A stretch of DNA of 37,104 nt, from positions 1-37,104 of the forward strand of contig JBDRBY010000030.1 of the NCBI GenBank assembly GCA_043822245.1. Reading direction: 5' to 3'. The notes below the pieces were generated by a model. It was not told where the DNA came from. It searched no databases and was given only the letters and a program-made list of their open reading frames with translations. Shown here in pieces: positions 1-23,213 of this stretch (position 1 is its first letter; every line of letters starts with the position of its first letter). Origin of the DNA: Candidatus Omnitrophota bacterium (GTDB lineage Bacteria > Omnitrophota > Gorgyraeia > Tantalellales > Tantalellaceae). Both the position numbers and the translations under genes were made by a program.

Positions 1-971
1 GTAACATTAGCGATATTTCTTACCTGATTAGTAAGATTCGCGGCCATGGTGTTGACGTTATCCGTTAACGCTTTCCATGTTCCGGCAACTCCCGGAACAG
101 CCGCCTGTCCGCCAAGTTTTCCTTCGGTTCCCACTTCTTTGGCAACGCGGGTAACTTCACTTCCAAACGCGTTCAAATTATCAACCATTCGATTGATTGT
201 ATTTTTAAGTTCCAAGACCTCACCGGATACGTTAACCGTGATTTTCTGAGATAAGTCTCCATTAGCGACCGCGGTGGTAACCGTGGCAATATTTCTTACC
301 TGGCTGGTAAGGTTTCCCGCCAAAGTATTAACGTTATCCGTTAGGTTTTTCCATATTCCGGCTACCCCTGGAACAGCCGCCTGGCCGCCAAGTTTTCCTT
401 CGGTTCCCACTTCTTTGGCAACGCGGGTAACCTCATTAGCGAATGTGTTGAGTGAATCAACCATGTTATTAATTGTATCTTTTAACTGCAGTATTTCGCC
501 TTGAGCCTCGACCGTGATCTTCTGTGAGAGGTCTCCTTTAGCTACCGCGGTGGTAACATTGGCGATATTTCTTACCTGGTTTGTTAAGTTCGCGGCTAAA
601 GTGTTGACGTTATCGGTTAAATCTTTCCATGTACCGGCAACACCCTCTACTTTTGCCTGTCCGCCGAGCTTTCCGTCGGTGCCGACTTCTTTTGCCACGC
701 GGGTAACTTCGCCGCCGAACCGGTTAAGAAGGTCAACCATACCGTTATAAGATTCCGCGAGATCTCCAAAAATATCTTCTCTACGGCTTTTAAGTTTTCT
801 TGTCAGATCTCCTTTTCGCACCGCCTCCATCGCTTCGAGAAGGTCTCTCAACTGCTGTTCCATTCCCTCAGCGCTCCCTACTCCTATCCCCCTTTCTACC
901 ACGGCTGTCCCTACTCCTCCTCCATCGTCAAACAATGCTTTTCTCGCCGGTTTCCTCAATGGTTCTGACAT
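1..971 (-). CDS. Multi-HAMP (poly-HAMP) signalling protein, N-terminal part; the C-terminus runs off the window start
   Basis: I translated the minus strand by hand. It starts at the ATG that is the complement of 969-971 ([16 protein letters not shown]...). After that come at least three ~76-aa tandem HAMP-type repeats, e.g. ...[60 protein letters not shown].... The plus-strand ORFs at 46-249, 274-504 and 514-750 are antisense translations of these repeats. There is no in-frame stop before position 1. Confidence 0.85.
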
Positions 972-3048: not shown

Positions 3049-3220
3049 GTAGAGACGCGATTTATCGCGTCTCTGTCTTTTCGGGTTTCATTTTTCATTG
3101 AGACGCGATGAATCGCGTCTCTACATTTTTGCGTTTCGTCCTTCATTGAGACGCGATGAATCGCGTCTCTACATTTTTGCGTTTCGTCCTTCATTGAGAC
3201 GCGATGAATCGCGTCTCTAC
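3049..3220. repeat. REP-like cluster: one copy at 3049-3075 and three direct 48-bp-period copies with a GA loop at 3098-3124, 3146-3172 and 3194-3220
   Basis: The unit TTGAGACGCGATGAATCGCGTCTCTAC plus ATTTTTGCGTTTCGTCCTTCA is repeated exactly three times. The last copy overlaps the stop codon of the 3217-4353 CDS. Confidence 0.9.
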
Positions 3221-9898: not shown

Positions 9899-9974
9899 GT
9901 GGAGACAAGATTTATCGCGTCTTTACATTTCAGAATCATATCCGGCGTAGAGACGCGATTTATCGCGTCTTTAC
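9899..9974. repeat. REP-like pair at 9899-9926 (degenerate) and 9948-9974, plus a partial copy at 10062-10070
   Basis: GTGGAGACAAGATTTATCGCGTCTTTAC and GTAGAGACGCGATTTATCGCGTCTTTAC. Confidence 0.85.
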
Positions 9975-10097: not shown

Positions 10098-10358
10098 TTA
10101 CATATCACCTATGTTAATAATTAAATCCGCGGTTTTTTTACGCAGGCCCGCGATGAAATGGCACTTTTTGCAATCAAAATTGTTGCTATCATATTTTGAG
10201 CAGGAAAAAAGCACATTTACCGCTTCTTGTAATTCTTTCGCGAATTTCGTTTTTTCCCGCGCTTCATCCTCTTTATTGATTTTATCTACCAGGGTATTTA
10301 TCTTTTCCTCACGTTTCACGAATATAGGACATCTAATCTTAGATTCTTCCCTATACAT
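10098..10358 (-). CDS. Hypothetical small Lys/Cys-containing protein (86 aa) at the distal end of the gvp cluster
   Basis: ORF with a C-X7-C-X2-C-H motif (CSKYDSNNFDCKKCH). The region is AT-rich. It is on the same strand as the neighbouring genes. I found no recognisable family. Confidence 0.3.
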   Translation of the reverse strand: MYREESKIRCPIFVKREEKINTLVDKINKEDEAREKTKFAKELQEAVNVLFSCSKYDSNNFDCKKCHFIAGLRKKTADLIINIGDM

Positions 10359-10378
10359 ATTCGTTTCTCCTTCTTGTT

Positions 10379-11059
10379 TTATTCAACAGGCGCGGTGAGA
10401 TATTCGGTCAATTTTTTGAATTCTTCTTTATCCCGGTTGAGACAAAGAAACAACCTTTGATACTCCCTTACTTTATTTACCCGTTTTATTTCAATTACAC
10501 GCATTCTTTTAGACAATTTAGGCAAAATGTTATGATACGCTCCCATAAACAGTATACCGGTATGTTCGTCATCTAAAGTTTCACATATCCTTTTAATTAC
10601 GTAGTCGTCCCTCTTTCTAAGTAGTCCGTTCTTTACCATTTTATAGGCGAAATAAGCTATTAATTTGCTAAGAACAGTTTTAGCGCGGCTGATTCTAACA
10701 ATACAATCCCTTTCTTTTTTGACAAGAGAAAAATCCTCTGTTTTCACTAAAACCGCTCCACGCTTAAGAAAAGAGGCGACCAACTCATAGTTTTTGCTGG
10801 CTAATTTTACTCCTTCTTCAACTATCGCTCTAGCCACTTCGCCCTCAGCTATCATTCCGTCCTGATAGATTTTCATCCCTGATACATTCATAGAATCAAA
10901 ATACCGTGCCAGACTATCCCAAAAACTTTCTACGGCTTTTAAATGTTGATCCCAAAAATCCCTGCCTAACTCAGCGATCCCTTTTTTGCTGACATCCTCA
11001 GCCAAGGAACCCATATCCGCGTTTGTGTGTATAACAGGAACATAAATAAGTGTTCTCAT
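10379..11059 (-). CDS. Hypothetical protein (226 aa), directly upstream of and co-oriented with gvpJ
   Basis: Long clean ORF. It is separated from gvpJ by 10 nt. I did not recognise a family. Confidence 0.6.
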   Translation of the reverse strand: MRTLIYVPVIHTNADMGSLAEDVSKKGIAELGRDFWDQHLKAVESFWDSLARYFDSMNVSGMKIYQDGMIAEGEVARAIVEEGVKLASKNYELVASFLKRGAVLVKTEDFSLVKKERDCIVRISRAKTVLSKLIAYFAYKMVKNGLLRKRDDYVIKRICETLDDEHTGILFMGAYHNILPKLSKRMRVIEIKRVNKVREYQRLFLCLNRDKEEFKKLTEYLTAPVE

Positions 11060-11069
11060 AAAAATTTGT

Positions 11070-11369
11070 TTATTTTATTTTGGCTTCCAAATTCTCTAAT
11101 CTTTTTTTTAATTTTTTATTCTCATTTTCAATTTCTTTATCTTTTGCCTTTGAAGATAAATAGCTATCCTGTTGCCACCAATTTATTCCCATTTCCATAG
11201 CTTTATCAACTGAAGCTATCAAAAGCCTTATCTTTATATTAAGAAGATCAATATCAGCAAGTCGAATCTTAATATCTCCGGCGATTACAATTCCTTTATC
11301 TAAAACCCGCTCTAAGATATCAGCAAGATTGGTAGCTTCAGTAGCATGCATCATTCTTTGTTGTGTCAT
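11070..11369 (-). CDS. gvpJ: GvpJ/GvpM-type gas vesicle protein (GvpA-family core plus a charged coiled-coil C-terminal extension)
   Basis: LADILERVLDKGIVIAGDIKIRLADIDLLNIKIRLLIASVDKA matches the GvpA/J/M hydrophobic core. Confidence 0.82.
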   Translation of the reverse strand: MTQQRMMHATEATNLADILERVLDKGIVIAGDIKIRLADIDLLNIKIRLLIASVDKAMEMGINWWQQDSYLSSKAKDKEIENENKKLKKRLENLEAKIK

Positions 11370-11386
11370 ATTTGCCTCTCCTTTTT

Positions 11387-11710
11387 TTACATTAAATTTC
11401 CTAAAGGGCCTAAATTTATGTTCAGGTCTTCATCTTTTACGTCAAAAATCTTTTTTAACTCATCCATCTTATCTTCCAACAACATCAATGTCTCCCCTAT
11501 TCTTTCTACTTCTCTATCGGTAAGAGATCCGCCGTCAACTCTTCTCATAGCCTGTTTTTCCAGAAGCCTTCTTATCAACTCTACAAGCGTAAGAACCAAT
11601 TTTCCTAATCCTTTTTCTACATCTTTAGGATCAAGATTGATCCTCCCGGGATTAGAATTTTCTATTTCCGACGGATCTTTAGCAATTATCGCTATGGATG
11701 ATTTACTCAT
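11387..11710 (-). CDS. gvpK: Gas vesicle protein GvpK
   Basis: GLGKLVLTLVELIRRLLEKQAMRRVDGGSLTDREVERIGETLMLLE matches the conserved GvpK core. Confidence 0.85.
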   Translation of the reverse strand: MSKSSIAIIAKDPSEIENSNPGRINLDPKDVEKGLGKLVLTLVELIRRLLEKQAMRRVDGGSLTDREVERIGETLMLLEDKMDELKKIFDVKDEDLNINLGPLGNLM

Positions 11711-11711
11711 T

Positions 11712-11930
11712 TTAAGTCGATTCCCTCATCGGGCCCTCAAGCGGAGCGCCTCTTGAATTCTCCATAGTTTCTACCGAACTAAGCATAATCCTTAATCCTA
11801 TGTATATGAGGTCCACGTCGGCAACAGAAATAACTATGTCACCGGACGCGACCATCCCCTTCTCTAAAACCCTATCTAAAATCTCTAACAGGGTTACATC
11901 TTTGGTTTTCGCGTGAATGTCCGTTGTCAT
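11712..11930 (-). CDS. Second GvpA-family small gas vesicle protein (GvpA2/S/M-like)
   Basis: LLEILDRVLEKGMVASGDIVISVADVDLIYIGLRIMLSSVET. It lies 1 nt from gvpK. Confidence 0.8.
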   Translation of the reverse strand: MTTDIHAKTKDVTLLEILDRVLEKGMVASGDIVISVADVDLIYIGLRIMLSSVETMENSRGAPLEGPMREST

Positions 11931-11937
11931 CTCAGGT

Positions 11938-12771
11938 TTAAGACCTTTCGTCGCCTGGTTTTATAAATCCATCACAAAAATTATACGCCGGCCAAGGGCC
12001 TGTCCAATCAAATTCTAAACCTTTAGGAACATACCTTGATTTTAGATATGCTATGGTATTGTCAAATTCTTTTATTCTTTTCTTATTTATCAAAAATGCC
12101 GCGTTTAAAATCATTTTTTCTTGTTTTTGAGTTATTTCCGCCGGTAACAGTTTGTTAAGCTTCGCGTTCTGGGATAGTTTTTCTAATCTGTTAAAACTAT
12201 CCTGAGTAAATTCAGAAATTTTTTTATCTAAAACATTCTTTACAATGTCTTCTCTCTTCTTTCTTAAAAAAAACGCCCTCCCTTTGCCGCTAGACGCGAT
12301 CTCATCGTCAATCTTTTTAATGTCCTCATTTTCTACGGGAAGGGTGTCACTGATTCTTTTGGGATCGCAATATATCTTTAGCCCCCACTCTTCCTTACCG
12401 TTTAATTCTTCTATCGTCCTTCTAAATTCCGTACCGCGCGCCTTAAGCAATTGCAGTACGTTTTCTTCAGTATTGAAAATCGTGCCAAATTTAAAAGGCA
12501 AAACCGTTGTCTCTTGTACAATTCTTTCTATCACATTCTCATGCCGCCTAACCTTTTCCTCAAGCCAATTCATATCGTCTAAACCTTTTTTAAAATTTTC
12601 CTCATCGAATTCGTTTGAGGAAACCTCGCTAATAACCGCGCAAATACCCTGAAAATAAATTAAAGCCAATTTAACGCCTATATCTTTGAAATCATTACAA
12701 ACCGGCTTTGATTTCGTAATACAGTATAAATAAGTCAGTTCTTTTTCTTCGCTCATCGCGCACCCCGCCAT
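11938..12771 (-). CDS. GvpF/GvpL-family gas vesicle assembly protein (paralog 1)
   Basis: The N-terminus (YLYCITKSK...) and the overall length and pattern are typical of GvpF/L, including FKFGTIF, VLQLL and a KEEWGLKIY motif. Confidence 0.82.
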   Translation of the reverse strand: MAGCAMSEEKELTYLYCITKSKPVCNDFKDIGVKLALIYFQGICAVISEVSSNEFDEENFKKGLDDMNWLEEKVRRHENVIERIVQETTVLPFKFGTIFNTEENVLQLLKARGTEFRRTIEELNGKEEWGLKIYCDPKRISDTLPVENEDIKKIDDEIASSGKGRAFFLRKKREDIVKNVLDKKISEFTQDSFNRLEKLSQNAKLNKLLPAEITQKQEKMILNAAFLINKKRIKEFDNTIAYLKSRYVPKGLEFDWTGPWPAYNFCDGFIKPGDERS

Positions 12772-12789
12772 CTGTTAAGGCTTATTCAG

Positions 12790-13041
12790 TTACGCCTGGC
12801 CTTTACGCTCATACGACTCAACTTCTAAACTATTATTCAGTTTAACAACATAAATATTTCTGTCCTGCACTCTTGTGGAAAGGCCTAAGGATTTGATAAA
12901 CGAGCTTTCCTCATATACTTCCGCCTCAGTTTCCCAGCCGTTACCGCTCACAGCCGCCTTGATCACTTTTACATCTTTAACACTAAGAGTCTTTTTTAAA
13001 AATTCCGCCGATGCCTTTCGGGCATTTTCAATGTCCGCCAT
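12790..13041 (-). CDS. Hypothetical small protein (83 aa) embedded in the gvp operon
   Basis: Clean ORF whose stop overlaps the gvpG start by 1 nt. No recognised family. Confidence 0.55.
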   Translation of the reverse strand: MADIENARKASAEFLKKTLSVKDVKVIKAAVSGNGWETEAEVYEESSFIKSLGLSTRVQDRNIYVVKLNNSLEVESYERKGQA

Positions 13042-13280
13042 TATTCTCCCCCCTCTTTACTCTCTCTGATAGAATCTAACCGCGCTAAAAGTTCTTGCTC
13101 TTGTTTTTTATATTCCGCTTCGGCTATTTCATCCATCTCAAAACGCATCTGTAATTCCATAAGTTTCTCTTTTATCCGGCCTTCGTCAGAAAATTCCTTT
13201 TCCACAAGATCGTTAATCTTTTTACCTATCCAAGTCACACCGTTTATAGGCATAAACAATAGGTCATCAATCAAGAACAT
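13041..13280 (-). CDS. gvpG: Gas vesicle protein GvpG
   Basis: The N-terminus MFLIDDLLFMP and the charged helical tail (EAEYKKQEQELLARLDSIRE) match GvpG. Confidence 0.8.
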   Translation of the reverse strand: MFLIDDLLFMPINGVTWIGKKINDLVEKEFSDEGRIKEKLMELQMRFEMDEIAEAEYKKQEQELLARLDSIRESKEGGE

Positions 13281-13281
13281 A

Positions 13282-14046
13282 TTAGTATTCCTTTGTCTCT
13301 ATCGTTATACTCACAAAATTGAACGGAGGAAGCGTACCTACATACTTAAACTTTATCTTGTCTCCATATTTTTCGTCAAGCTGTTGGATATTCCGATCAA
13401 ATTCCGCCTCTTTGTTTTTGACTACCAAAAAAGCGGCATTTATGATCATCCTTTCACCATAGGTATCATTTATCTTTACATTCTCCGCTAAAGGGCTTAG
13501 GGCATCCAACATTGCTTTTTTATATTTTTCCTTTTCCTCATTCAGAGCCTGTTCCACCAAATTTCCAATCTCCATACGTTGGTAATAACTCTTTGCCGGC
13601 GGCACAGACACTATTTCCTGCTTAAGCTTTTTAATCTTCTCATATCTTTCCAATATTTCTTTGTAAATCATGTCTTCTCTAAATATCGCCTTAAGCCCTA
13701 GCTCCTTTTTATCTCTAACCTTATTAAAAAGTTCTTTAAGTTTATCGTATTCCCTTGCTAATATCTTCCTGATCTTTTCCTCATCTTCAGCAATTGTGGC
13801 AAATCTTACAGGCAAAACTGTACGCGTTTTCATTACTTCCTCAATCGCCTTTTCATGGGCAAACGCATTTTCACTCGAAATAGCGTATTTTTTAATCGGG
13901 GAATTACTGACCACAGCCGCAATATCGTTAAAACATACCGTATAAAGAACATCTCCCCTGCCTCCGATGCCTAAAGGGCCAAAAGATTGAACCTGATTCG
14001 AATCAATTATGCAGTAAATATATTTGCCCTCGTTCATTTTTCCCAT
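13282..14046 (-). CDS. GvpF/GvpL-family protein (paralog 2)
   Basis: KYIYCIIDS...FGPLGIGGRGDVLYTV...AAVVSNSP...LPVRFATI. Confidence 0.85.
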   Translation of the reverse strand: MGKMNEGKYIYCIIDSNQVQSFGPLGIGGRGDVLYTVCFNDIAAVVSNSPIKKYAISSENAFAHEKAIEEVMKTRTVLPVRFATIAEDEEKIRKILAREYDKLKELFNKVRDKKELGLKAIFREDMIYKEILERYEKIKKLKQEIVSVPPAKSYYQRMEIGNLVEQALNEEKEKYKKAMLDALSPLAENVKINDTYGERMIINAAFLVVKNKEAEFDRNIQQLDEKYGDKIKFKYVGTLPPFNFVSITIETKEY

Positions 14047-14813
14047 TCCTCGGGGTATATAGCAAGATTAACAAAATTGAATACCGGTAAGGGGCCCGCG
14101 TATAGAAATTTTACTTTCTCTTTACGGCGTTCGCTTAAATCATCCATTATGTTATCAAACTCTTTTTCCCTGGCTTTAGAAATCAAAAAAGACGCGTTCA
14201 TAAACATCTCTTCACTCATATTATTGTTAAGCCTGTAATCCACCGCTAATCTCTTTAAGATGTTTATGATTTCTTCCGCAGATTCTTCTTTTTTCTTACC
14301 AAGTGCCTGCTCAACCATCCTGCCCAATTCCACTCCATCTTGGATATCTTTCTTGCCCTTATGATTTTGTATGTTTTCTTTCGCATCCTTAATCATTTTG
14401 TTTTCGCGCGCAATTTCCTTAAAAATCGCGTACATATTCTTCCATATCGCTTTGACGCCTACTTCTACCTTGTGATCCATATCTTTCAGCGCGTTTTTAA
14501 ATTCCCGGCCCCTTCTATCTAAAAGATTCCTTATTTCATCGGCATTTGAAGCAAGCGTGCCAAACCTAACCGGAAGCACACTATCAAATTCCTTCATCAC
14601 TTCCTCAATTACTTTCTGATGAGCCAGCATATTCTCCCGATTTACAACAAATCTACCCATAGGATGATTACTGACAACCATACTCAAATCGTCGTGCCCA
14701 ACAGTTAAAACCTCATCGTTTCTGCCTCCGATGCCGATAGGCCCAAAATTTCGCTCTTGTTTTGTCCCGATAACGCAATAGATATATTTTCCTTCTTTCT
14801 CCAGAATACTCAT
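14034..14813 (-). CDS. GvpF/GvpL-family protein (paralog 3)
   Basis: KYIYCVIGT...FGPIGIGGRNDEVLTV...LSMVVSNHP...LPVRFGTL. It overlaps the downstream paralog by 13 nt. Confidence 0.85.
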   Translation of the reverse strand: MSILEKEGKYIYCVIGTKQERNFGPIGIGGRNDEVLTVGHDDLSMVVSNHPMGRFVVNRENMLAHQKVIEEVMKEFDSVLPVRFGTLASNADEIRNLLDRRGREFKNALKDMDHKVEVGVKAIWKNMYAIFKEIARENKMIKDAKENIQNHKGKKDIQDGVELGRMVEQALGKKKEESAEEIINILKRLAVDYRLNNNMSEEMFMNASFLISKAREKEFDNIMDDLSERRKEKVKFLYAGPLPVFNFVNLAIYPEEWEK

Positions 14814-14815
14814 AC

Positions 14816-15874
14816 TTAATCCTTTATTTTGACCAGTACCGCGTTTTTATTAAAATCTTTCTCATCAAAGAAACATCTGTCAATATGCCCTTCCTGCATG
14901 CATGCTCTGTAATATTCGATAAGTATCTTATGCGCCTTAGTTATCTCGTCAAATTCTCCCTCTTTACTTTGTATCCCGGAATTTTTGTCCGGATGCGCGG
15001 AAAGCGACAAAGCATGATGCGCTTTTTTAATTTCTTCTTCGGTTGTAACATCGTTCAGCCCGAATCTTTTTTGAGCCCAGATTACTTGTTCAAAATTTAT
15101 CTTCTTTATCTCCAGAGTGTAAAAACTATACGGCGGAAGAGGGCCTATACATCTGAATTTTAGTTTTTCATTAAATTCAGCATTTAAGCCCTCTACCTCA
15201 TTATCAAAATCCTTCCGTTTTGTTTTGTCTACCAAAAAGGCGCAATTCATAACCATTTTATCATCCATGCGTTCTCCGGCCCTAAAATCCTCGCTTAGTC
15301 CGCTTAAACAAGCTACAAGACGAGAACTGTGCCCCTCCCTTCGCTCATCTAACGCTTTCTTAACCATAACTCCTATTTTCATCTGATCTTCCACGGTCAC
15401 GCCTCCGGGATTGGATAAGGCTATTTGCTTGTATCTACTGATTTCTTCCCGCTTTCCGATCTCATTGAGAACCGCCGTAAAATCACTCCATGTAACGGCG
15501 ACATCAATCTCTATCTTCCCTGCCGCTTTTTTAAACACATCCTTTATGAGGGGATATCCCTTCCGTAAGACATCTTCAACATGGCTGTCCTCTTGAGCAA
15601 ATGTACCAAGCCGCATAGGAATAACCGTATGCTCCAAAGCCATTATCCGCTCAAGCACTTTCTGATGCCTGACCAACAGCCTGGCTAGAGCGTCTCTGTG
15701 CAGACAAGCACATTCAACAACCGGCAAGTCACATACTACGGCAGAAATATCCCGATAAGGAATTGTATAAACTAAATCAGTCCCCGTTTTTTCTACTGAC
15801 TCCATAGGAACAAAAAGGCGCATCCCCGCGTTAGAGCCTACTACGCCATAAATATATCTGCCTATTTCACTCAC
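14816..15874 (-). CDS. GvpF/GvpL-family protein fused to a C-terminal DnaJ-type J-domain (paralog 4)
   Basis: The N-terminal ~250 aa is GvpF/L-like (RYIYGVVGS..., IPMRLGTF). The C-terminal ~70 aa is FGLNDVTTEEEIKKAHHALSLSAHPDKNSG...ITKAHKILIEYY, which has the HPD motif and the J-domain helix II/III pattern. It apparently starts at a GTG. Confidence 0.8.
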   Translation of the reverse strand: MSEIGRYIYGVVGSNAGMRLFVPMESVEKTGTDLVYTIPYRDISAVVCDLPVVECACLHRDALARLLVRHQKVLERIMALEHTVIPMRLGTFAQEDSHVEDVLRKGYPLIKDVFKKAAGKIEIDVAVTWSDFTAVLNEIGKREEISRYKQIALSNPGGVTVEDQMKIGVMVKKALDERREGHSSRLVACLSGLSEDFRAGERMDDKMVMNCAFLVDKTKRKDFDNEVEGLNAEFNEKLKFRCIGPLPPYSFYTLEIKKINFEQVIWAQKRFGLNDVTTEEEIKKAHHALSLSAHPDKNSGIQSKEGEFDEITKAHKILIEYYRACMQEGHIDRCFFDEKDFNKNAVLVKIKD

Positions 15875-15956
15875 CCTTTACGCCTTCTTTCTTTTTAGAC
15901 TTGCGTTTGAATTTACTGCTCAAGAATCCTTTGATCATTTTTAAAATTTTAAACAT
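15867..15956 (-). CDS. Candidate 29-aa Lys-rich micro-ORF ([29 protein letters not shown]) bridging the CDC48-like and GvpF/L-J genes
   Basis: I translated it by hand. Its ATG overlaps the CDC48-like TAA stop by 8 nt, and its TGA overlaps the GTG start of the downstream gene. A GGAGG lies 5 nt upstream of the ATG. It is too short for the ORF track. Confidence 0.3.
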
Positions 15957-18102
15957 CTCCGCCTCCTTTCTGATTATTGAGTAAGTTAATCGCATCTTTA
16001 AAATGTCTCATGGCTATCTCTAGTCGCGGCTTCCCTCTGCTTGGTAATGACCGGCCGTTTATATATTCTCTTATTGCAAGCATAGCGGCCTTGCGGCAAA
16101 TAAATTCAATATCAGACCCTACTTTTTTATCCGTCTCTTTAGCGAGGCTCTTAAAATCAACATCCTCGGTAAGTGGTTTATTCCTAGTATGTATTTTGAA
16201 AATCTCTTCTCTGGTTTCCTCACTCGGCACGGACAGTTCGAATAAAAGGTCAAATCTTCCGCTTCTGAGCAAGGCCGGGTCAATTAAATCTATCCTATTG
16301 GTAGCGGCTAAGACCACCACTCCTCTAAGCTCTTCAATACCATCCATCTCTGTTAAAAACTGGCTTATCACCCTTTCCGTGACATGCGTACCGGTAGAAT
16401 CCGAACCGCGCCTGGGCACAAGGCTGTCTATCTCATCAAGAAAAAGTATTGTTGGCGCCGCTTGCTTCGCCTTTTTAAATATCTCCCTTACGCCCCGCTC
16501 CGATTCGCCGACATAACGATTCAAAAGCTCAGGGCCTTTAACAGAGATAAAGTTTACTCCGCTTTCCGAGGCAACCGCTTTGCCCAAGAGTGTTTTCCCC
16601 GTTCCCGGCTTACCATAAAGCAAGATTCCTTTAGGCGGCGAGGTGTTCGCTTTTTTGAAAACATCAGAATATTTAAGGGGCCACTCTATTATCTCTTTAA
16701 GTTCTTCCTTGACATCCTTAAGGCCCCCCACGTCACCCCATTTTACATTCGGCACTTCAACAAAAACTTCTCTAATAGCCGAGGGTTCTACCTCTTTCAT
16801 GGCTGCTAAAAAATCATCCATGGTTACTTCCAATTCCATCAAAGTCTCATAGGGGATATCAGCCATTTCAAAATCGATTTTAGGCAAAATCTTCCGCAGA
16901 GCCGCCATTGCCGCTTCTCTTGCTAATGCCTCCAAATCCGCTCCCACAAATCCATGAGTTATTTCCGATAACTTTTCTAAACCAACATCTTTTGCTAACG
17001 GCATACCTCTGGTATGAATTTGAAGCACCTCGTATCTCGCGTTTTTATCAGGGATAGGAATGGATATTTCTCTATCAAATCTCCCCGGCCGTCTTAGAGC
17101 CGGGTCTATAACATTTGGCAGATTGGTCGCGGCGATAACAATAACGTGGCCTCTGGATTCCAATCCATCCATTAACGCTAAAAGTTGAGAAACTACTCTA
17201 CGCTCAACCTGTTTTTCAGCGCCCATGTCTTCTCTTTTCGGAGCGATTGCCTCAATTTCATCTAAAAAGACGATGCTCGGAGCGTTGGCCTGGGCGTTTT
17301 GGAATATTGAACGTAAACGGCCTTCACTTTCTCCATAAAATTTTCCCATAATCTCCGGGCCGCTTATGCTGATAAAACACGCGTCAGTCTCATTCGCTAC
17401 TGCTCGGGCAATTAACGTTTTTCCCGTACCCGGGGGGCCATAGAGGAGTACCCCTTTGGGCGCGCCAATACCCAATCTCTCAAACACCTGAGGATATCTT
17501 AAAGGAAGCTCTATCATCTCTCTAATCCTTTGAATCTGCGTAGTGAGCCCGCCAATATCTTCATATGAAATCTTAGCCGGGCCCGCTTCCTTAACTTCCT
17601 CTACCTCAATTTTTATGAGGGTAGCCGGGCTTATTGAAACTATACCGCCGGGAACAGTATCCAATACCTTAAAATCACAAGATTTTGAACCAAAAAGCGC
17701 GGCTCTAACTCTGTCGCCACAAGTTACCGGCAGTCCTTCTATGAGAGAACCTATGTATTTACTGTCTTTGTCCTTCTGAAGAGAACCTGATAAAGTTAGC
17801 GGTGAAAGCCTGATTTTGTCCGCGGGTTTACAAACAACTTTCTTGATTTTTATCTTTTCATCTAATCCAACCCGCGCGTTTTCGCGTAAGATTCCGTCAA
17901 TCTGCGCGATCTTTTTTCCCCTTTCTTCGGCATAGCAGAGCATTACCTTAGCCGGAGTCTCTCTTTTTCCTTTAATCACCGCGATATCACCCGCTTCTAA
18001 TCCAAGGCTCTTCATATCTTCCGGATCGAGCCTGGCAACCGCCCTGCCTACATCCTTTGATAATGCCTCTTTTACTTTTAGTGTTAACGAATTGGCCGTC
18101 AT
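15949..18102 (-). CDS. CDC48/VCP-like double-ring AAA+ ATPase
   Basis: 717 aa. It has a CDC48 N-domain-like N-terminus and two AAA modules with Walker A motifs GPPGTGKTL and GKPGTGKTL, Walker B motifs FLDEID, and SRH regions ([22 protein letters not shown] and [19 protein letters not shown]). Confidence 0.9.
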
Positions 18103-18638
18103 TTCTGTACTCTAATTTCTAATATCCCGTTCCTATAATTTGATGTTAGGGTTTTGGCTTGAACTTTAGCCGGCAATAAGACTTCTTTGCGGTATTTTCT
18201 ATCCTTACTCACTGCTTTTATTTCCAATATATCCTCTTTTAAATCCAAGGAGATAGCTTCCTGTTTAACTCCCGGCATCTCCGCCATAACAACCACTTCA
18301 TCTTTCTCATTAAATATGTCAACAATCGGCTCTCTTTCTTCTTCAACCTTTGGCCCTTTAGGGGTTTTTTTAACATTACCAAAGGGTTCAACCACAGTCT
18401 TACCTCCCATGGCTGTTTTTACCGAAAACCCAAAAACCCCTTTCATGCCCTCTTTGAGACGGCCCAGGTCTATTTCTCCTTCTTTTTTAACTTCTCCTCC
18501 GGCCTCTTTTAAATCCCCTGCCAAATCAACTAATTTCTCAATACCACGGAATAATCCGCCTAAGCTTAATTTCCCTATACCAAAATCAAGATCTAAATCC
18601 TGTTTTTCGTTTTTGGTTTTTCTTTTGCCCTTGTTCAT
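18099..18638 (-). CDS. Hsp20/alpha-crystallin family protein with an N-terminal Lys/Gly-rich extension
   Basis: The C-terminal alpha-crystallin domain is [38 protein letters not shown]...[25 protein letters not shown]. It overlaps the CDC48-like start by 4 nt. Confidence 0.8.
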
Positions 18639-18694
18639 TTTCTTCCCCCCATTTCGCCTACATTTTTAGATTTTTCGAACATGAACCGTTTTTA

Positions 18695-18721
18695 TAGAGA
18701 CGCGATAAATCGCGTCTCTAC
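18695..18721. repeat. REP-like palindrome
   Basis: TAGAGACGCGATAAATCGCGTCTCTAC. Confidence 0.9.
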
Positions 18722-18737
18722 TGTACAAAACACAGCC

Positions 18738-18958
18738 CGCGAAATACCGCGCGACGTAAAAAACGTAATTCGCGAAACACCGCGCACCGTAAAAAACGTA
18801 ATCCGCGAAACACCGCGCACCGTAAAAAATGCAATCCGCGAAACACCGCGCACCGTAAAAAATGCAATCCGCGAAACACCGCACACCGTAAAAAATGCAA
18901 TCCGCGAAATACCGCGCGACGTAAAAAACGTTGCCAGCGAAATGTCGCATACCGTAAA
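18738..18958. repeat. 33-bp tandem repeat array (6 full units plus 1 degenerate unit) bracketed by REP hairpins
   Basis: The units start at 18738, 18771, 18804, 18837, 18870 and 18903. The consensus is CGCGAAACACCGCGCACCGTAAAAAATGCAATC. The outer units are the variant CGCGAAATACCGCGCGACGTAAAAAACGT..., giving an A-B-B-B-B-A arrangement. All six reading frames are open across the array, so the listed ORFs (18666-18950, 18681-18968 and others) are artefacts. Confidence 0.9.
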
Positions 18959-19027
18959 GACGCGATAAATCGCGTCGCTACCTTATATAATATGGCGCAC
19001 CGTAGAGACGCGATTTATCGCGTCTCC
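18956..19027. repeat. REP-like pair at 18956-18981 (degenerate) and 19002-19027
   Basis: AAAGACGCGATAAATCGCGTCGCTAC and GTAGAGACGCGATTTATCGCGTCTCC. Confidence 0.85.
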
Positions 19028-19037
19028 TTTAACCGAA

Positions 19038-19358: not shown

Positions 19359-20330
19359 TTATACGAAAACTTCATCAACTTTTAGTGTCTCTTCCTCTGT
19401 AACCTCTCTGATAGCGCATACTTCGACCAACCCTTGAACTATATCTTTTACCTTGGATTGATTCGTCTTTGACCCGACCCTGCTTGTCTCAGACGCTAGT
19501 ATATCCTGGCATATTTGCGCGAAGGCCTTGTTCGATTTCCCCGGAGATATGTTCAGCACTTTAAGAGTTTTAGCGATCATAATACATCCGCGGACTGTCG
19601 GCGCGAATTCACATTTTCCGGATTCTCTCAATCCTCTCACAATATTCACTATCGTTTCCGCGTATCTTTTGGAAAGCTTAGATTTTGCCCGGGTTATAGC
19701 CACCTCCGTCTCATAATCAAAACAATCTAAATCCATTGTTATCATCCTGTCCCTCAAAGCGTCCTGGCTTCTGTGGACTCCGGCATATTCCTCCGGGTTA
19801 GAGGTAAAAATAGCGGTAAAATTAGGGTCAACCCTCAAATATGGTTCTTCACCGCCCCGCCCCACCGGCAAATCCATCATCTTTTCCTGTAAAATGGAAA
19901 GAAGGATATTGTTTGCCTCAGGCCGTGAACGGGTAAATTCGTCATAAATCAAAGTGAACCCGTATCTGCAAGCAACTGTTAAACGATTATCTACCCAGCG
20001 TTTTACCATATCTTCTTCTGTTTTTAACACCCTGGAGATAAACCTATCCACTACTTTTCTAACCCTGTAACCATATTCACCACCGACTAAATCCGATGTA
20101 GTAAATTCTTCATCTCCATGAATCATCACAACGGGCCTCGCTATTTTGCCGGCAATGTGCATAGCCATAGTAGTTTTGCCTGTACCGGAAACTCCCCGAA
20201 AATGAATGGGAAAACCCGCTTTAATGTAGGAAAGGGCTCTTCTGGTAACATCTTTGACGTATTTCGTCTCCACAAAGTCAGGTAAAGCGCTGGGTTCCAG
20301 CACTGTTGTCATTTCATCTATCATTTTCAC
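19359..20330 (-). CDS. gvpN: GvpN AAA+ ATPase (CbbQ/NirQ/GvpN family)
   Basis: 323 aa. It has the Walker A motif GVSGTGKTT, a Walker B motif LIYDEF and a MoxR/CbbQ-like arrangement. It follows the A-C-N gene order seen in other gvp clusters. It starts at GTG 20330, or at ATG 20324. Confidence 0.88.
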   Translation of the reverse strand: MKMIDEMTTVLEPSALPDFVETKYVKDVTRRALSYIKAGFPIHFRGVSGTGKTTMAMHIAGKIARPVVMIHGDEEFTTSDLVGGEYGYRVRKVVDRFISRVLKTEEDMVKRWVDNRLTVACRYGFTLIYDEFTRSRPEANNILLSILQEKMMDLPVGRGGEEPYLRVDPNFTAIFTSNPEEYAGVHRSQDALRDRMITMDLDCFDYETEVAITRAKSKLSKRYAETIVNIVRGLRESGKCEFAPTVRGCIMIAKTLKVLNISPGKSNKAFAQICQDILASETSRVGSKTNQSKVKDIVQGLVEVCAIREVTEEETLKVDEVFV

Positions 20331-21532: not shown

Positions 21533-22141
21533 TTACAAAGTATTTCTACTAAACTTCCTCCACTCTTTTTTTATTTTAAACTCTTCCAGCATGGATTTGA
21601 GGTCTTTTACTCTGAGCTCTCTTCCTTTGGCTAAAAGATTCTTAAGCCTCTTCGACATTACCTGCTGTTCTTCTCTAAATTGCTTTAGTTTAACGGTAAC
21701 TTCTTCTTTCCGCACGTCTTGCTGAGAAAGAATCCGTTCAATTAAAACCTGAAAGTCTTTAATTCTTTTAGTTTCTCCCTTACTAAGGTCATCTTTTACT
21801 GAAGTCAAATTACGAGCTAACATATGCGCCATTTCTTTTTGTTCCGTTATGTACCCATTCAACAAACTTTTTGCTTCTTTTTCTTTTTCCTTTTGAGCCC
21901 AAACAATCTCTTTCATCATATTGTCAAAATCTTTTTTCCGAAGAGAACTGATCTTCGCAAGGCTTTCTCTCAATTCCATAGTAACTATTTCTCTTTCTTG
22001 TCTCGCATCGAGAAAGGAATCCTGAAAACTCCAGAGAAACTGCTCTCCTGTATCAGCGGCCGCCTCTATTCTGTCCATCTTAGCGACATAAGAACTAACA
22101 ACGTTCTCAACAATACCATGTATACCCTCTCTTGAAAGCAT
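21533..22141 (-). CDS. Coiled-coil protein, a paralog of the GvpC-like repeat protein
   Basis: Its C-terminal segments KDFQVLIERIL...KQFREEQQVMSKRLKNLLAKGRELRVKDLKSMLEEFK share the F-R-x-x-R/Q-x-x-M-S-K motif and periodicity of the 20487-21176 protein. Confidence 0.6.
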   Translation of the reverse strand: MLSREGIHGIVENVVSSYVAKMDRIEAAADTGEQFLWSFQDSFLDARQEREIVTMELRESLAKISSLRKKDFDNMMKEIVWAQKEKEKEAKSLLNGYITEQKEMAHMLARNLTSVKDDLSKGETKRIKDFQVLIERILSQQDVRKEEVTVKLKQFREEQQVMSKRLKNLLAKGRELRVKDLKSMLEEFKIKKEWRKFSRNTL

Positions 22142-22271: not shown

Positions 22272-22478
22272 TTACGCGGCTGACGCTGTTAACCCAATAG
22301 CTTCCGCATACTTCAGATAAGTCTCAACTGATGCCACCACAACTCTAGCTTCGATAGCGAGTATTTCAATACCCACCAAAGAAACTCTTACCCAAGCATC
22401 AACCACAACACCCTTATCCAGGATACGGTCGACAACTTCAACCAGACTCGACGAACCGATTGCCTTTTCTACAGCCAT
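22272..22478 (-). CDS. gvpA: Major gas vesicle structural protein GvpA
   Basis: [63 protein letters not shown] is near-identical to the canonical GvpA core. The ATG at 22478 is preceded by GGGAGGAGGTGAGAAAA. The track's extra MRK comes from an upstream GTG. Confidence 0.95.
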
Positions 22479-22518
22479 TTTTCTCACCTCCTCCCATTTT
22501 AGAAATTAAAGGTCAAAA

Positions 22519-23090: not shown

Positions 23091-23213
23091 TTGAGACGCG
23101 ATAAATCGCGTCTCTACATTTCAGAATCATATCCGGTGTAGAGACGCGATTTATCGCGTCTTTACATCTCAGAATCATATCCGGTGTAGAGACGCGATAA
23201 ATCGCGTCTTTAC
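23091..23213. repeat. REP-like triplet in alternating orientation with a 47-bp period (23091-23117, 23138-23165, 23185-23213)
   Basis: Each copy is followed by the conserved ATTTCAGAATCATATCCGGT spacer. The last copy overlaps the stop of the 23210-23854 CDS. Confidence 0.9.

Follow-up and report, generated by a model that had tools for sequence, protein, structure and literature searches.

Few known protein assemblies are as stable as gas-vesicle shells, and the keeping of GvpA in solution before assembly and the disposal of collapsed shells are both open questions. Haloarchaeal GvpH was found to stop GvpM from aggregating and to keep it soluble (PMC6107691), GvpF binds monomeric GvpA (PMC9501494), and ArsA and hsp20 genes, but not CDC48, have already been reported from gas-vesicle (gvp) clusters (PMC2963123, PMC7325909). 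In Dolichospermum, gas-vesicle collapse induces clpB, dnaK and J-protein genes, and a search for proteins recognizing collapsed vesicles in the same preprint gave no strong candidates (bioRxiv 10.64898/2026.05.31.729101). The gvp cluster described here carries a gene for a CDC48-family AAA+ ATPase. It lies on a contig of 37,104 bp from an Omnitrophota metagenome-assembled genome (MAG), the whole of which is called the window, and forms an operon-like array of 19 genes from 22487 to 10098 on the minus strand. GvpA, GvpN, GvpF/L, GvpG, GvpJ/S and GvpK, recognized with Pfam and NCBIfam models, are all encoded on that strand. The original prediction, made from the letters of the window, had placed a small heat-shock protein (sHsp), Hsp20, and the CDC48 inside this operon, between gvpN and the gvpF paralogues (here three GvpF/L genes), and that placement held to the nucleotide. 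With a probability of roughly 55%, judged from sequence comparison, the CDC48 would be a VAT-like unfoldase of a co-inherited gvp cluster that, together with the sHsp and a J-domain GvpF paralogue (GvpF::J), handles non-productive assemblies of GvpA-family proteins. The elements on which this proposal turns are the following.

19359..20330, minus strand: GvpN, the canonical gas-vesicle AAA+ ATPase of AAA_5/MoxR type (TIGR02640, 338 bits, cutoff 267; Pfam AAA_5)
18099..18638, minus strand: Hsp20, GvpH-like, 179 aa (approximately, alpha-crystallin domain 18102-18320 and conserved N-terminal region 18321-18638)
15949..18102, minus strand: CDC48, 717 aa (approximately, N domain 17578-18102, D1 16753-17577 and D2 15949-16752)
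14816..15874, minus strand: GvpF::J, a GvpF/L paralogue with a C-terminal J domain (Pfam GvpL_GvpF, 184.6 bits; DnaJ, 43.8 bits, cutoff 27.8)

Membership of the CDC48 family can be regarded as firm. All Pfam matches exceeded their cutoffs, with 84.8 bits for CDC48_N (cutoff 35.1), 34.1 bits for CDC48_2 (cutoff 22.4), 306 bits for two AAA domains and two further matches to AAA_lid_3, and the NCBIfam model TIGR01243 "CDC48 family" was matched with 926.2 bits (cutoff 802.65). The best PDB match was VAT of Thermoplasma (5g4f, E 3e-220, residues 4-687), followed by p97. NCBI lists the same protein, at 100% identity, under the name "CDC48 family AAA ATPase", and the gene itself is already auto-annotated as CDC48. 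FtsH (504 bits against a cutoff of 600) and ClpX (38-42 bits against a cutoff of approximately 360-370) were rejected as identities, as was PAN, the models of which match only single rings. No peptidase M41 or ClpX zinc-finger domain was found among the best 25 of 38 Pfam families, and no ClpB-type model occurred among the Pfam and NCBIfam matches listed. With TIGR01243 passed and the FtsH and ClpX cutoffs missed, the protein does not fall among the FtsH/ClpX-like families, a placement that would have refuted the original prediction.

In the D1 ring, Walker A (GPPGTGKT), Walker B (FLDEIE), sensor-1 (AATN) and arginine fingers (RRPGRFDR) were identified, and in the D2 ring the corresponding motifs read GKPGTGKT, FLDEID, AATNR and RSGRFD; the predicted architecture of an N domain followed by two rings with intact Walker A/B motifs and arginine fingers was thus found with every motif present. 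The pore loops are aromatic in both rings (KFYG in D1 and RYVG in D2), which is the pattern of processive archaeal VAT-type unfoldases, p97 having no aromatic loop in D1. All of these motifs are kept in all 36 members of the gvp-linked clade described below. Given the match to VAT and the 50-60% identity shared with archaeal homologues, a hexameric double ring with ATP-dependent unfolding activity would be expected. The gvp-linked proteins also differ from their archaeal homologues in two respects. An HbYX-like C-terminal tail was found in 0 of 35 gvp-clade members versus 16 of 31 archaeal homologues, and the window protein ends in ...QKGGGDV, without HbYX, so docking to the 20S proteasome is not expected; this loss agrees with hosts that have no 20S proteasome and with a motor not feeding into one. 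The N domain, which in CDC48 is the site of adaptor and substrate binding, is the most diverged part relative to the archaeal homologues, with 35% identity compared with 66% for D1 and 58% for D2, and is 60% identical within the gvp clade. The claim of the original prediction that bacterial CDC48 homologues are uncommon had to be qualified, since homologues of approximately 50% identity occur outside gvp clusters, for example on plasmids of Rhizobium, Methylocella and Methylosinus.

The genomic context of CDC48 was evaluated in a genome scan with one genome per species, which returned 434 CDC48 relatives; the best 80 of these were retained and searched by tblastn with every protein of the window operon. 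All bacterial homologues with at least approximately 60% identity and sufficient flanking DNA sit in a gvp cluster, and the same synteny surrounds CDC48 in approximately 35 genome loci labelled as more than 12 phyla. The shared order, on one strand, is GvpA, p202, p240, GvpN, p101, Hsp20, ArsA (where present), CDC48, GvpF::J, GvpF, GvpF, GvpG, p83, GvpL, GvpS, GvpK, p86, GvpJ and p226. The phylum or group labels comprise Nitrospinota, Latescibacterota, Planctomycetota, Nitrospirota, Chlamydiota, Omnitrophota, Cloacimonadota, Ignavibacteriales, Elusimicrobiota, Atribacterota, Victivallales, Desulfobacterota, Actinomycetota, Eubacteriales and Thermotogae. The cluster was also found on long contigs (locus L007, 686 kb; L033, 1.27 Mb; L034, 272 kb; L029, 209 kb), which argues that at least part of this breadth is not a binning artefact. 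Because the genome sample had been chosen through CDC48, an independent metagenome sample seeded with GvpN was also evaluated. In it, 28 loci extended at least 3 kb downstream of GvpN, and CDC48 was present in 26 of them. The two remaining loci stop inside the ArsA gene preceding CDC48 or just past it, so that 26 of 26 informative loci carry it and CDC48 is constantly present in clusters of this type. The predicted gvp neighbourhood is therefore kept in related genomes as well as in the GvpN-seeded sample, and the dedication of the ATPase to gas vesicles, as originally proposed, is well supported by comparative genomics; that it acts as an unfoldase on Gvp proteins is what we infer. Two cultured strains carry a CDC48 homologue of 60% identity near gvp genes, namely Desulfosporosinus fructosivorans 63.6F (L038), approximately 6.5 kb downstream of them with inserted genes between, and Desulfosporosinus sp. 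SRJS8 (L039), approximately 1 kb downstream, and both are possible experimental hosts.

In a neighbour-joining tree of 74 full-length CDC48s, midpoint-rooted without an outgroup, the window protein and 35 gvp-linked bacterial sequences formed one clade apart from the archaeal CDC48s (bootstrap 165/200), with a 29-member core supported by 186/200. Within this main clade, the pairwise distances of CDC48 correlated with those of GvpN (r 0.69), Hsp20 (r 0.71) and GvpA (r 0.73), with a Mantel p of 0.001 each, which indicates that the cluster travels as a unit. The CDC48 identity of approximately 75% between phyla and a topology at odds with taxonomy argue for horizontal transfer. The PLSDB plasmids hold no close CDC48 relative (best 52.6%) and IMG/VR gave one match of 25%, so these collections provide no evidence of a plasmid or phage vector.

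The sHsp encoded directly upstream of CDC48 passed the Pfam HSP20 model with 34.3 bits (cutoff 20.8) over residues 107-179, the alpha-crystallin domain, and also the GvpH model PF05455 with 28.2 bits (cutoff 22) over residues 26-178, corresponding to profile positions 10-166 of 177; the orthologue in L002 scored 22.9 against GvpH. The presence of a GvpH-type Hsp20 among gvp genes is no novelty. Across loci, the N-terminal half of the protein is better kept (approximately 70-87%) than the alpha-crystallin domain (approximately 52-76%), with values of 83% versus 71% in L002 and 87% versus 68% in L011. Small heat-shock proteins usually show the opposite pattern, and this inversion suggests a specific partner. 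Against the NCBIfam model "archaeal heat shock protein Hsp20" (NF041800), the protein scored 139.4 bits, 0.6 bits short of the cutoff of 140, and it is 39% identical (E 1e-27) to an archaeal Hsp20 encoded directly upstream of a CDC48. Archaeal loci with Hsp20 beside CDC48 and without gvp genes were found six times (L041, L042, L047, L050, L051 and L072), with Hsp20 directly upstream on the same strand across a 47-nt gap in L047 and with two Hsp20 genes upstream on the same strand in L051, and Hsp20 also stands next to CDC48 on plasmid H2 of Natrinema. In the archaeal Phr and HSR1 heat-shock regulons, the AAA+ gene is a CDC48 homologue. These regulons consist of an sHsp and an AAA+ ATPase (PMC10653856), and together with the gvp-free archaeal pairs they give the Hsp20-CDC48 pair of the window the look of a heat-shock cassette captured from archaea. 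Such a pair appears to have been built into the operon of a bacterial organelle, which then spread across many phyla.

The pair could instead be a generic stress module, captured by a mobile gvp island and buffering proteotoxic stress of the whole cell without specific Gvp substrates, as might be read from the archaeal loci and the Natrinema plasmid that lack gvp genes, from the pairing of sHsp with AAA+ ATPase in the Phr and HSR1 regulons (PMC10653856), from the spread of the cluster over many phyla and from the proteotoxic stress that gas-vesicle expression causes in a foreign host, E. coli (PMC12848028). The strict retention of CDC48 in 26 of 26 informative loci, its fixed mid-operon position with overlapping junctions, the match of the sHsp to the GvpH family, a J domain that is fused to GvpF rather than free-standing and the strong divergence of the N domain from the archaeal homologues all speak against a generic role, which is considered unlikely.

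The Hsp20 and CDC48 genes of the window overlap by 4 nt, as predicted, with ATGA shared at GTA CAG AAA TGA / ATG ACG GCC (sequence AAATGACGG). The translational coupling deduced from this in the original prediction is permitted by the overlap and is not proven by it; the overlap is ordinary operon packing, since other junctions here measure -13, -1, +1 and +2 nt, and the distances from Hsp20 onward range from -13 to +74 nt. The same ATGA overlap was found in L003, L096 and L109. In 47 of 59 related loci, Hsp20 and CDC48 are separated by a gene for a single-domain ArsA/Get3-like ATPase of 311 aa (Pfam ArsA_ATPase, 277 bits), at 9051-9986 in L002, with junctions around it of mostly -4 to +3 nt. 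The ArsA gene is absent from the window and 12 other loci; the direct junction noted in the original prediction is therefore a minority one, reflecting a gene that was lost in the window or never present there. A protein of approximately 126 aa consisting of DnaJ-type CXXCXGXG zinc-finger repeats is encoded near GvpN or Hsp20 in 95 related loci (8104-8484 in L002) and is a further chaperone-like element of the cluster. It is likewise absent from the window, which is a reduced variant of the cluster.

The constancy of CDC48 in this cluster type and its position between the GvpF paralogues and GvpN, the latter needed to enlarge bicones (PMC9501494), would also agree with an obligatory assembly factor. 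In that case CDC48, with the ArsA/Get3-like protein where present, would power biogenesis, for example by extracting GvpA from a holding complex or the membrane or by feeding it into the shell; hydrophobic segments are the clients of the ArsA/Get3 family, and a proposal exists that gas-vesicle biogenesis is energised by ArsA homologues (PMC2963123). The dispensability of ArsA in the window and 12 other loci and the formation of vesicles by well-studied clusters without CDC48 make such a role quite unlikely, and sequence does not separate assembly from disassembly.

Downstream of CDC48, the J domain of GvpF::J extends over approximately 14918-15061 and contains the HPD motif, and a J domain with HPD fused to GvpF is encoded after CDC48 in almost every main-clade locus and in the Bathyarchaeota locus. 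Several deeper-branching gvp loci carry, at the distal cluster end and on the same strand, a gene for an Hsp70 (DnaK) homologue (L029, 18506-; L030, 21591-; L033, 19168-21006 on the plus strand; L034, 20106-), and in the Bathyarchaeota locus L040 an Hsp70 gene (2-901, minus strand) stands directly downstream of GvpF::J.

We infer the following scheme, which covers the substrates of the proposed VAT-like unfoldase, whether it would rescue, recycle or degrade them, and every physical interaction. The GvpH-type sHsp would hold exposed hydrophobic surfaces of the GvpA-family proteins GvpA, GvpJ and GvpS. CDC48 would engage aggregates and mis-assembled or collapsed shells through its diverged N domain and extract subunits by ATP-driven threading through the two rings with their aromatic pore loops. 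GvpF::J, a paralogue of the GvpA-binding chaperone, would recruit Hsp70 through its J domain to receive the released chains. Since CDC48 has no proteasome-docking tail, the released subunits would be re-used or, possibly, cleaved within the cluster's own set by the Tiki/TraB-like protein p226. The module would thus work like the sHsp/DnaK-DnaJ/ClpB disaggregase, built from the archaeal Hsp20-CDC48 heat-shock pair.

Several observations weigh against this scheme. The clusters of Anabaena, B. megaterium, Serratia and Halobacterium make vesicles without CDC48, which is therefore not universally required. No Hsp70 gene lies within the window, so that the partner of the J domain must be encoded elsewhere, and the lack of the ArsA-like and zinc-finger genes found in most relatives indicates that the composition of the module is flexible. 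The phylum labels come from MAG binning and are unreliable for mobile islands on short contigs. In addition, some gvp-linked CDC48s fall outside the main clade, namely those of the Bacillota loci L043 and L044, which share the GvpN-Hsp20-CDC48-GvpF order, of Desulfosporosinus (L038 and L039), of L073 and of the Bathyarchaeota locus L040. Either the association with gvp genes accordingly predates the main clade or it came about repeatedly, and several captures or an uncertain root of the midpoint-rooted tree may be involved.

A stronger version of the VAT-like unfoldase proposal, in which the cluster would carry a dedicated dismantling machine made of the GvpH-type sHsp as a marker of exposed shell surfaces, the CDC48 motor drawing GvpA-family subunits from collapsed or mis-assembled shells, and GvpF::J with Hsp70, joined by ArsA and the zinc-finger protein in most relatives and possibly by p226 and a small amphipathic peptide, is put forward as a tentative and rather doubtful extension. 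If true, it would provide the first enzymatic route by which gas vesicles are disassembled or recycled, and its self-sufficiency would explain the free movement of the cluster between phyla.

The protein p226 is conserved near the end of the operon.

10379..11059, minus strand: p226, conserved protein with an EreA/ChaN/Tiki/TraB-like predicted fold

It has no Pfam match and 908 homologues annotated as "hypothetical". Its AlphaFold model (predicted local distance difference test score, pLDDT, 88.9) shows a predicted EreA/ChaN/Tiki/TraB-like fold, and p226 is a candidate hydrolase or protease on the basis of this model. A conserved candidate of this kind would also suit a regulatory role, in which CDC48 would unfold or remove a regulatory or nucleation protein, with p226 as a possible protease, in the way the haloarchaeal NTPase GvpD lowers the activator GvpE; GvpD's presence results in GvpE being degraded, and the NTP-binding domain of GvpD is essential (PMC9501494). 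Pfam searches found neither gvpD nor gvpE in the window cluster. GvpD is not a CDC48 homologue, the cluster encodes no transcription factor or obvious regulatory target, and the neighbours of CDC48 (the sHsp, the J domain, ArsA and the DnaJ-type zinc finger) form a chaperone set, so that regulation is held to be very improbable.

A further small gene was found at the CDC48 stop.

15867..15956, minus strand: small open reading frame (ORF), 29 aa, spanning the CDC48 stop to the GvpF::J start

The micro-ORF reported there in the original prediction is real, and its start was revised. It had been listed with 42 aa (15867-15995), and the better start is the internal ATG at 15956, which stands behind a GGAGG Shine-Dalgarno motif (AAAGGAGG) and overlaps the CDC48 stop, while the stop of the 29-aa ORF overlaps the GTG start of GvpF::J. 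A tblastn search with the 42-aa ORF gave no homologue, and the 29-aa peptide matched no Pfam family. Homologous peptides of 27-50 aa are encoded after CDC48 in 18 other loci (L002 at 12135, L009 at 10250, L011 at 12195, L017 at 7865, L018 at 12149, L019 at 12231, L021 at 12420, and L109, L112, L119, L120, L122, L133, L134, L135, L146, L153 and L159), 11 of them from the GvpN-seeded set; a strict regular expression built on the small ORFs of the genome set missed the metagenome copies. The start lies -16 to +33 nt from the CDC48 stop in 17 of the 18 other loci, the copy in L021 following a second Hsp20 gene, and a Shine-Dalgarno-like motif precedes 18 of the 19 copies, that of the window included. 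After the consensus M-x-K-I-I-E-K-I-K-x-x-F, an amphipathic helix, comes a basic tail in which Lys, Glu and Pro are abundant. A chance ORF was rejected as an explanation because similar peptides are encoded after CDC48 in relatives. The small ORF is, on this comparative evidence, a real and unnamed small gene, the helix and basic tail of which suggest surface binding.

The remaining elements of the array are the following.

22272..22487, minus strand: gvpA, major shell protein opening the cluster (Pfam Gas_vesicle, 57.1 bits)
21533-22141, minus strand: p202, Lys/Glu-rich protein after gvpA, with internal repeats of approximately 35 aa
20487-21209, minus strand: p240, Lys/Glu-rich protein with internal repeats of approximately 35 aa, e.g., KNRxKMxKEQA
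Between gvpN and the spacer, minus strand: p101, 101-aa protein
18639..19037, minus strand: spacer of 399 nt between p101 and Hsp20
14034-14813 and 13282-14046, minus strand: GvpF/L paralogues two and three
10098..14813, minus strand: the rest of the packed operon, with GvpF, GvpF, GvpG, an 83-aa GvpO-like protein, GvpL, GvpS, GvpK, GvpJ, p226 and p86 (Pfam matches)

GvpA is 88-99% identical in related loci. The proteins p202 and p240 have no family match and may be candidate GvpC-like outer-surface proteins. The operon is flanked by ordinary host genes for a ParA-like ATPase, a GAF histidine kinase, a permease, a TPR protein, an ABC transporter, a radical SAM enzyme and RecQ. The spacer occupies a place where relatives carry other genes. 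It contains three copies of a 22-nt palindromic element resembling repetitive extragenic palindromes (REP) and, between the 101-aa ORF and Hsp20, a 33-nt tandem repeat of 6.3 copies (18723-18930), in each unit of which a T-run comes after a short GC hairpin on the sense strand, as in a terminator, with a fold z-score of -4.85 for the repeat region. This repeat could be an attenuator splitting the operon into a gvpA-to-N half and an Hsp20-to-p86 half. Promoter and terminator scans of the window otherwise gave chance-level results, and an Rfam scan of the window gave no match, with no RNA thermometer upstream of Hsp20. The 22-nt perfect palindrome GAGACGCGATAAATCGCGTCTC occurs at approximately 26 sites in the window, with 0 expected by chance (e.g., 2457, 3052-3217, 4403, 5910, 7936, 9902-9971, 18697, 18957, 19005, 23093-23210, 23893, 23943, 27410 and 29348). 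Its copies near the gvp island are intergenic, bracketing the island and also lying inside it, and some form arrays with a period of 48 or 65 nt, which are REP-like and not CRISPR, since the spacers within an array resemble each other. A 276-nt tandem repeat (2.7 copies, 75% match) was also found at the contig start (1-740), as was a perfect (TTGC)x15.5 microsatellite at 2037-2098.

To specialists in gas vesicles, a CDC48 within a gvp cluster would come as a surprise, and it makes the handling of shell proteins testable. Full-text searches of open-access papers found no description of a CDC48 in a gvp cluster or of this module, and papers on genomes carrying the cluster, such as that on the Latescibacteria single amplified genome of L002 (PMC4454575), speak only of "gas vesicle genes". 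An unfoldase, a holdase and an Hsp70-recruiting partner encoded in one cluster represent a concrete candidate for shell handling that can be tested in vitro and in E. coli, where the expression of gas vesicles is known to cause proteotoxic stress (PMC12848028). For acoustic reporters, a portable chaperone and unfoldase set might relieve this stress of heterologous vesicle expression and might also make vesicles erasable.

Compared with VAT and archaeal Cdc48, the gvp-linked protein has the same N domain (double-psi barrel and beta-clam), D1 and D2, with the aromatic pore loops KFYG in D1 and K/R-Y/W-V-G in D2, and differs in the missing HbYX, the bacterial host, the gvp operon and an N domain of approximately 35% identity. 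Cpa of actinobacteria is likewise a bacterial CDC48-like double-ring ATPase, and differs in being a proteasome interactor in proteasome-bearing actinobacteria. In the manner of the archaeal heat-shock pair of sHsp and AAA+ ATPase (Phr regulon of Pyrococcus, HSR1 operon of Archaeoglobus), the window has Hsp20 immediately upstream of a CDC48-type gene on one strand, an arrangement seen with homologous Hsp20s in the archaeal loci L047 and L051; unlike that pair, the window has no Phr/HSR1-type regulator, its sHsp matches GvpH and gvp genes stand on both sides. The sHsp/DnaK-DnaJ/ClpB disaggregase likewise comprises a holdase sHsp, a J domain for Hsp70 and a two-ring AAA+ threading motor, whereas the motor of the window is a classic-clade CDC48 and not an Hsp100, has no M domain for Hsp70 docking, and is accompanied by a J domain fused to GvpF and by an in-cluster Hsp70 only in some relatives. 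Haloarchaeal GvpH is a close counterpart of the window Hsp20, which passes the GvpH model over nearly its whole length, but gvpH is not followed by CDC48 in the gvpDEFGHIJKLM operon (PMC6107691). In the gvp clusters with ArsA homologues and Hsp20 described by Castillo and Saier (2010, PMC2963123), ArsA has two domains and approximately 600 aa compared with 311 aa here, and CDC48 is unmentioned; the window has no ArsA, and most of its relatives carry an ArsA/Get3-like gene directly after Hsp20. GvpN, finally, is also an AAA+ ATPase of gvp clusters and is present in the window, but it is a single-domain protein of AAA_5/MoxR type without an N domain or a second ring, and CDC48 is therefore an addition to GvpN and not a replacement for it.

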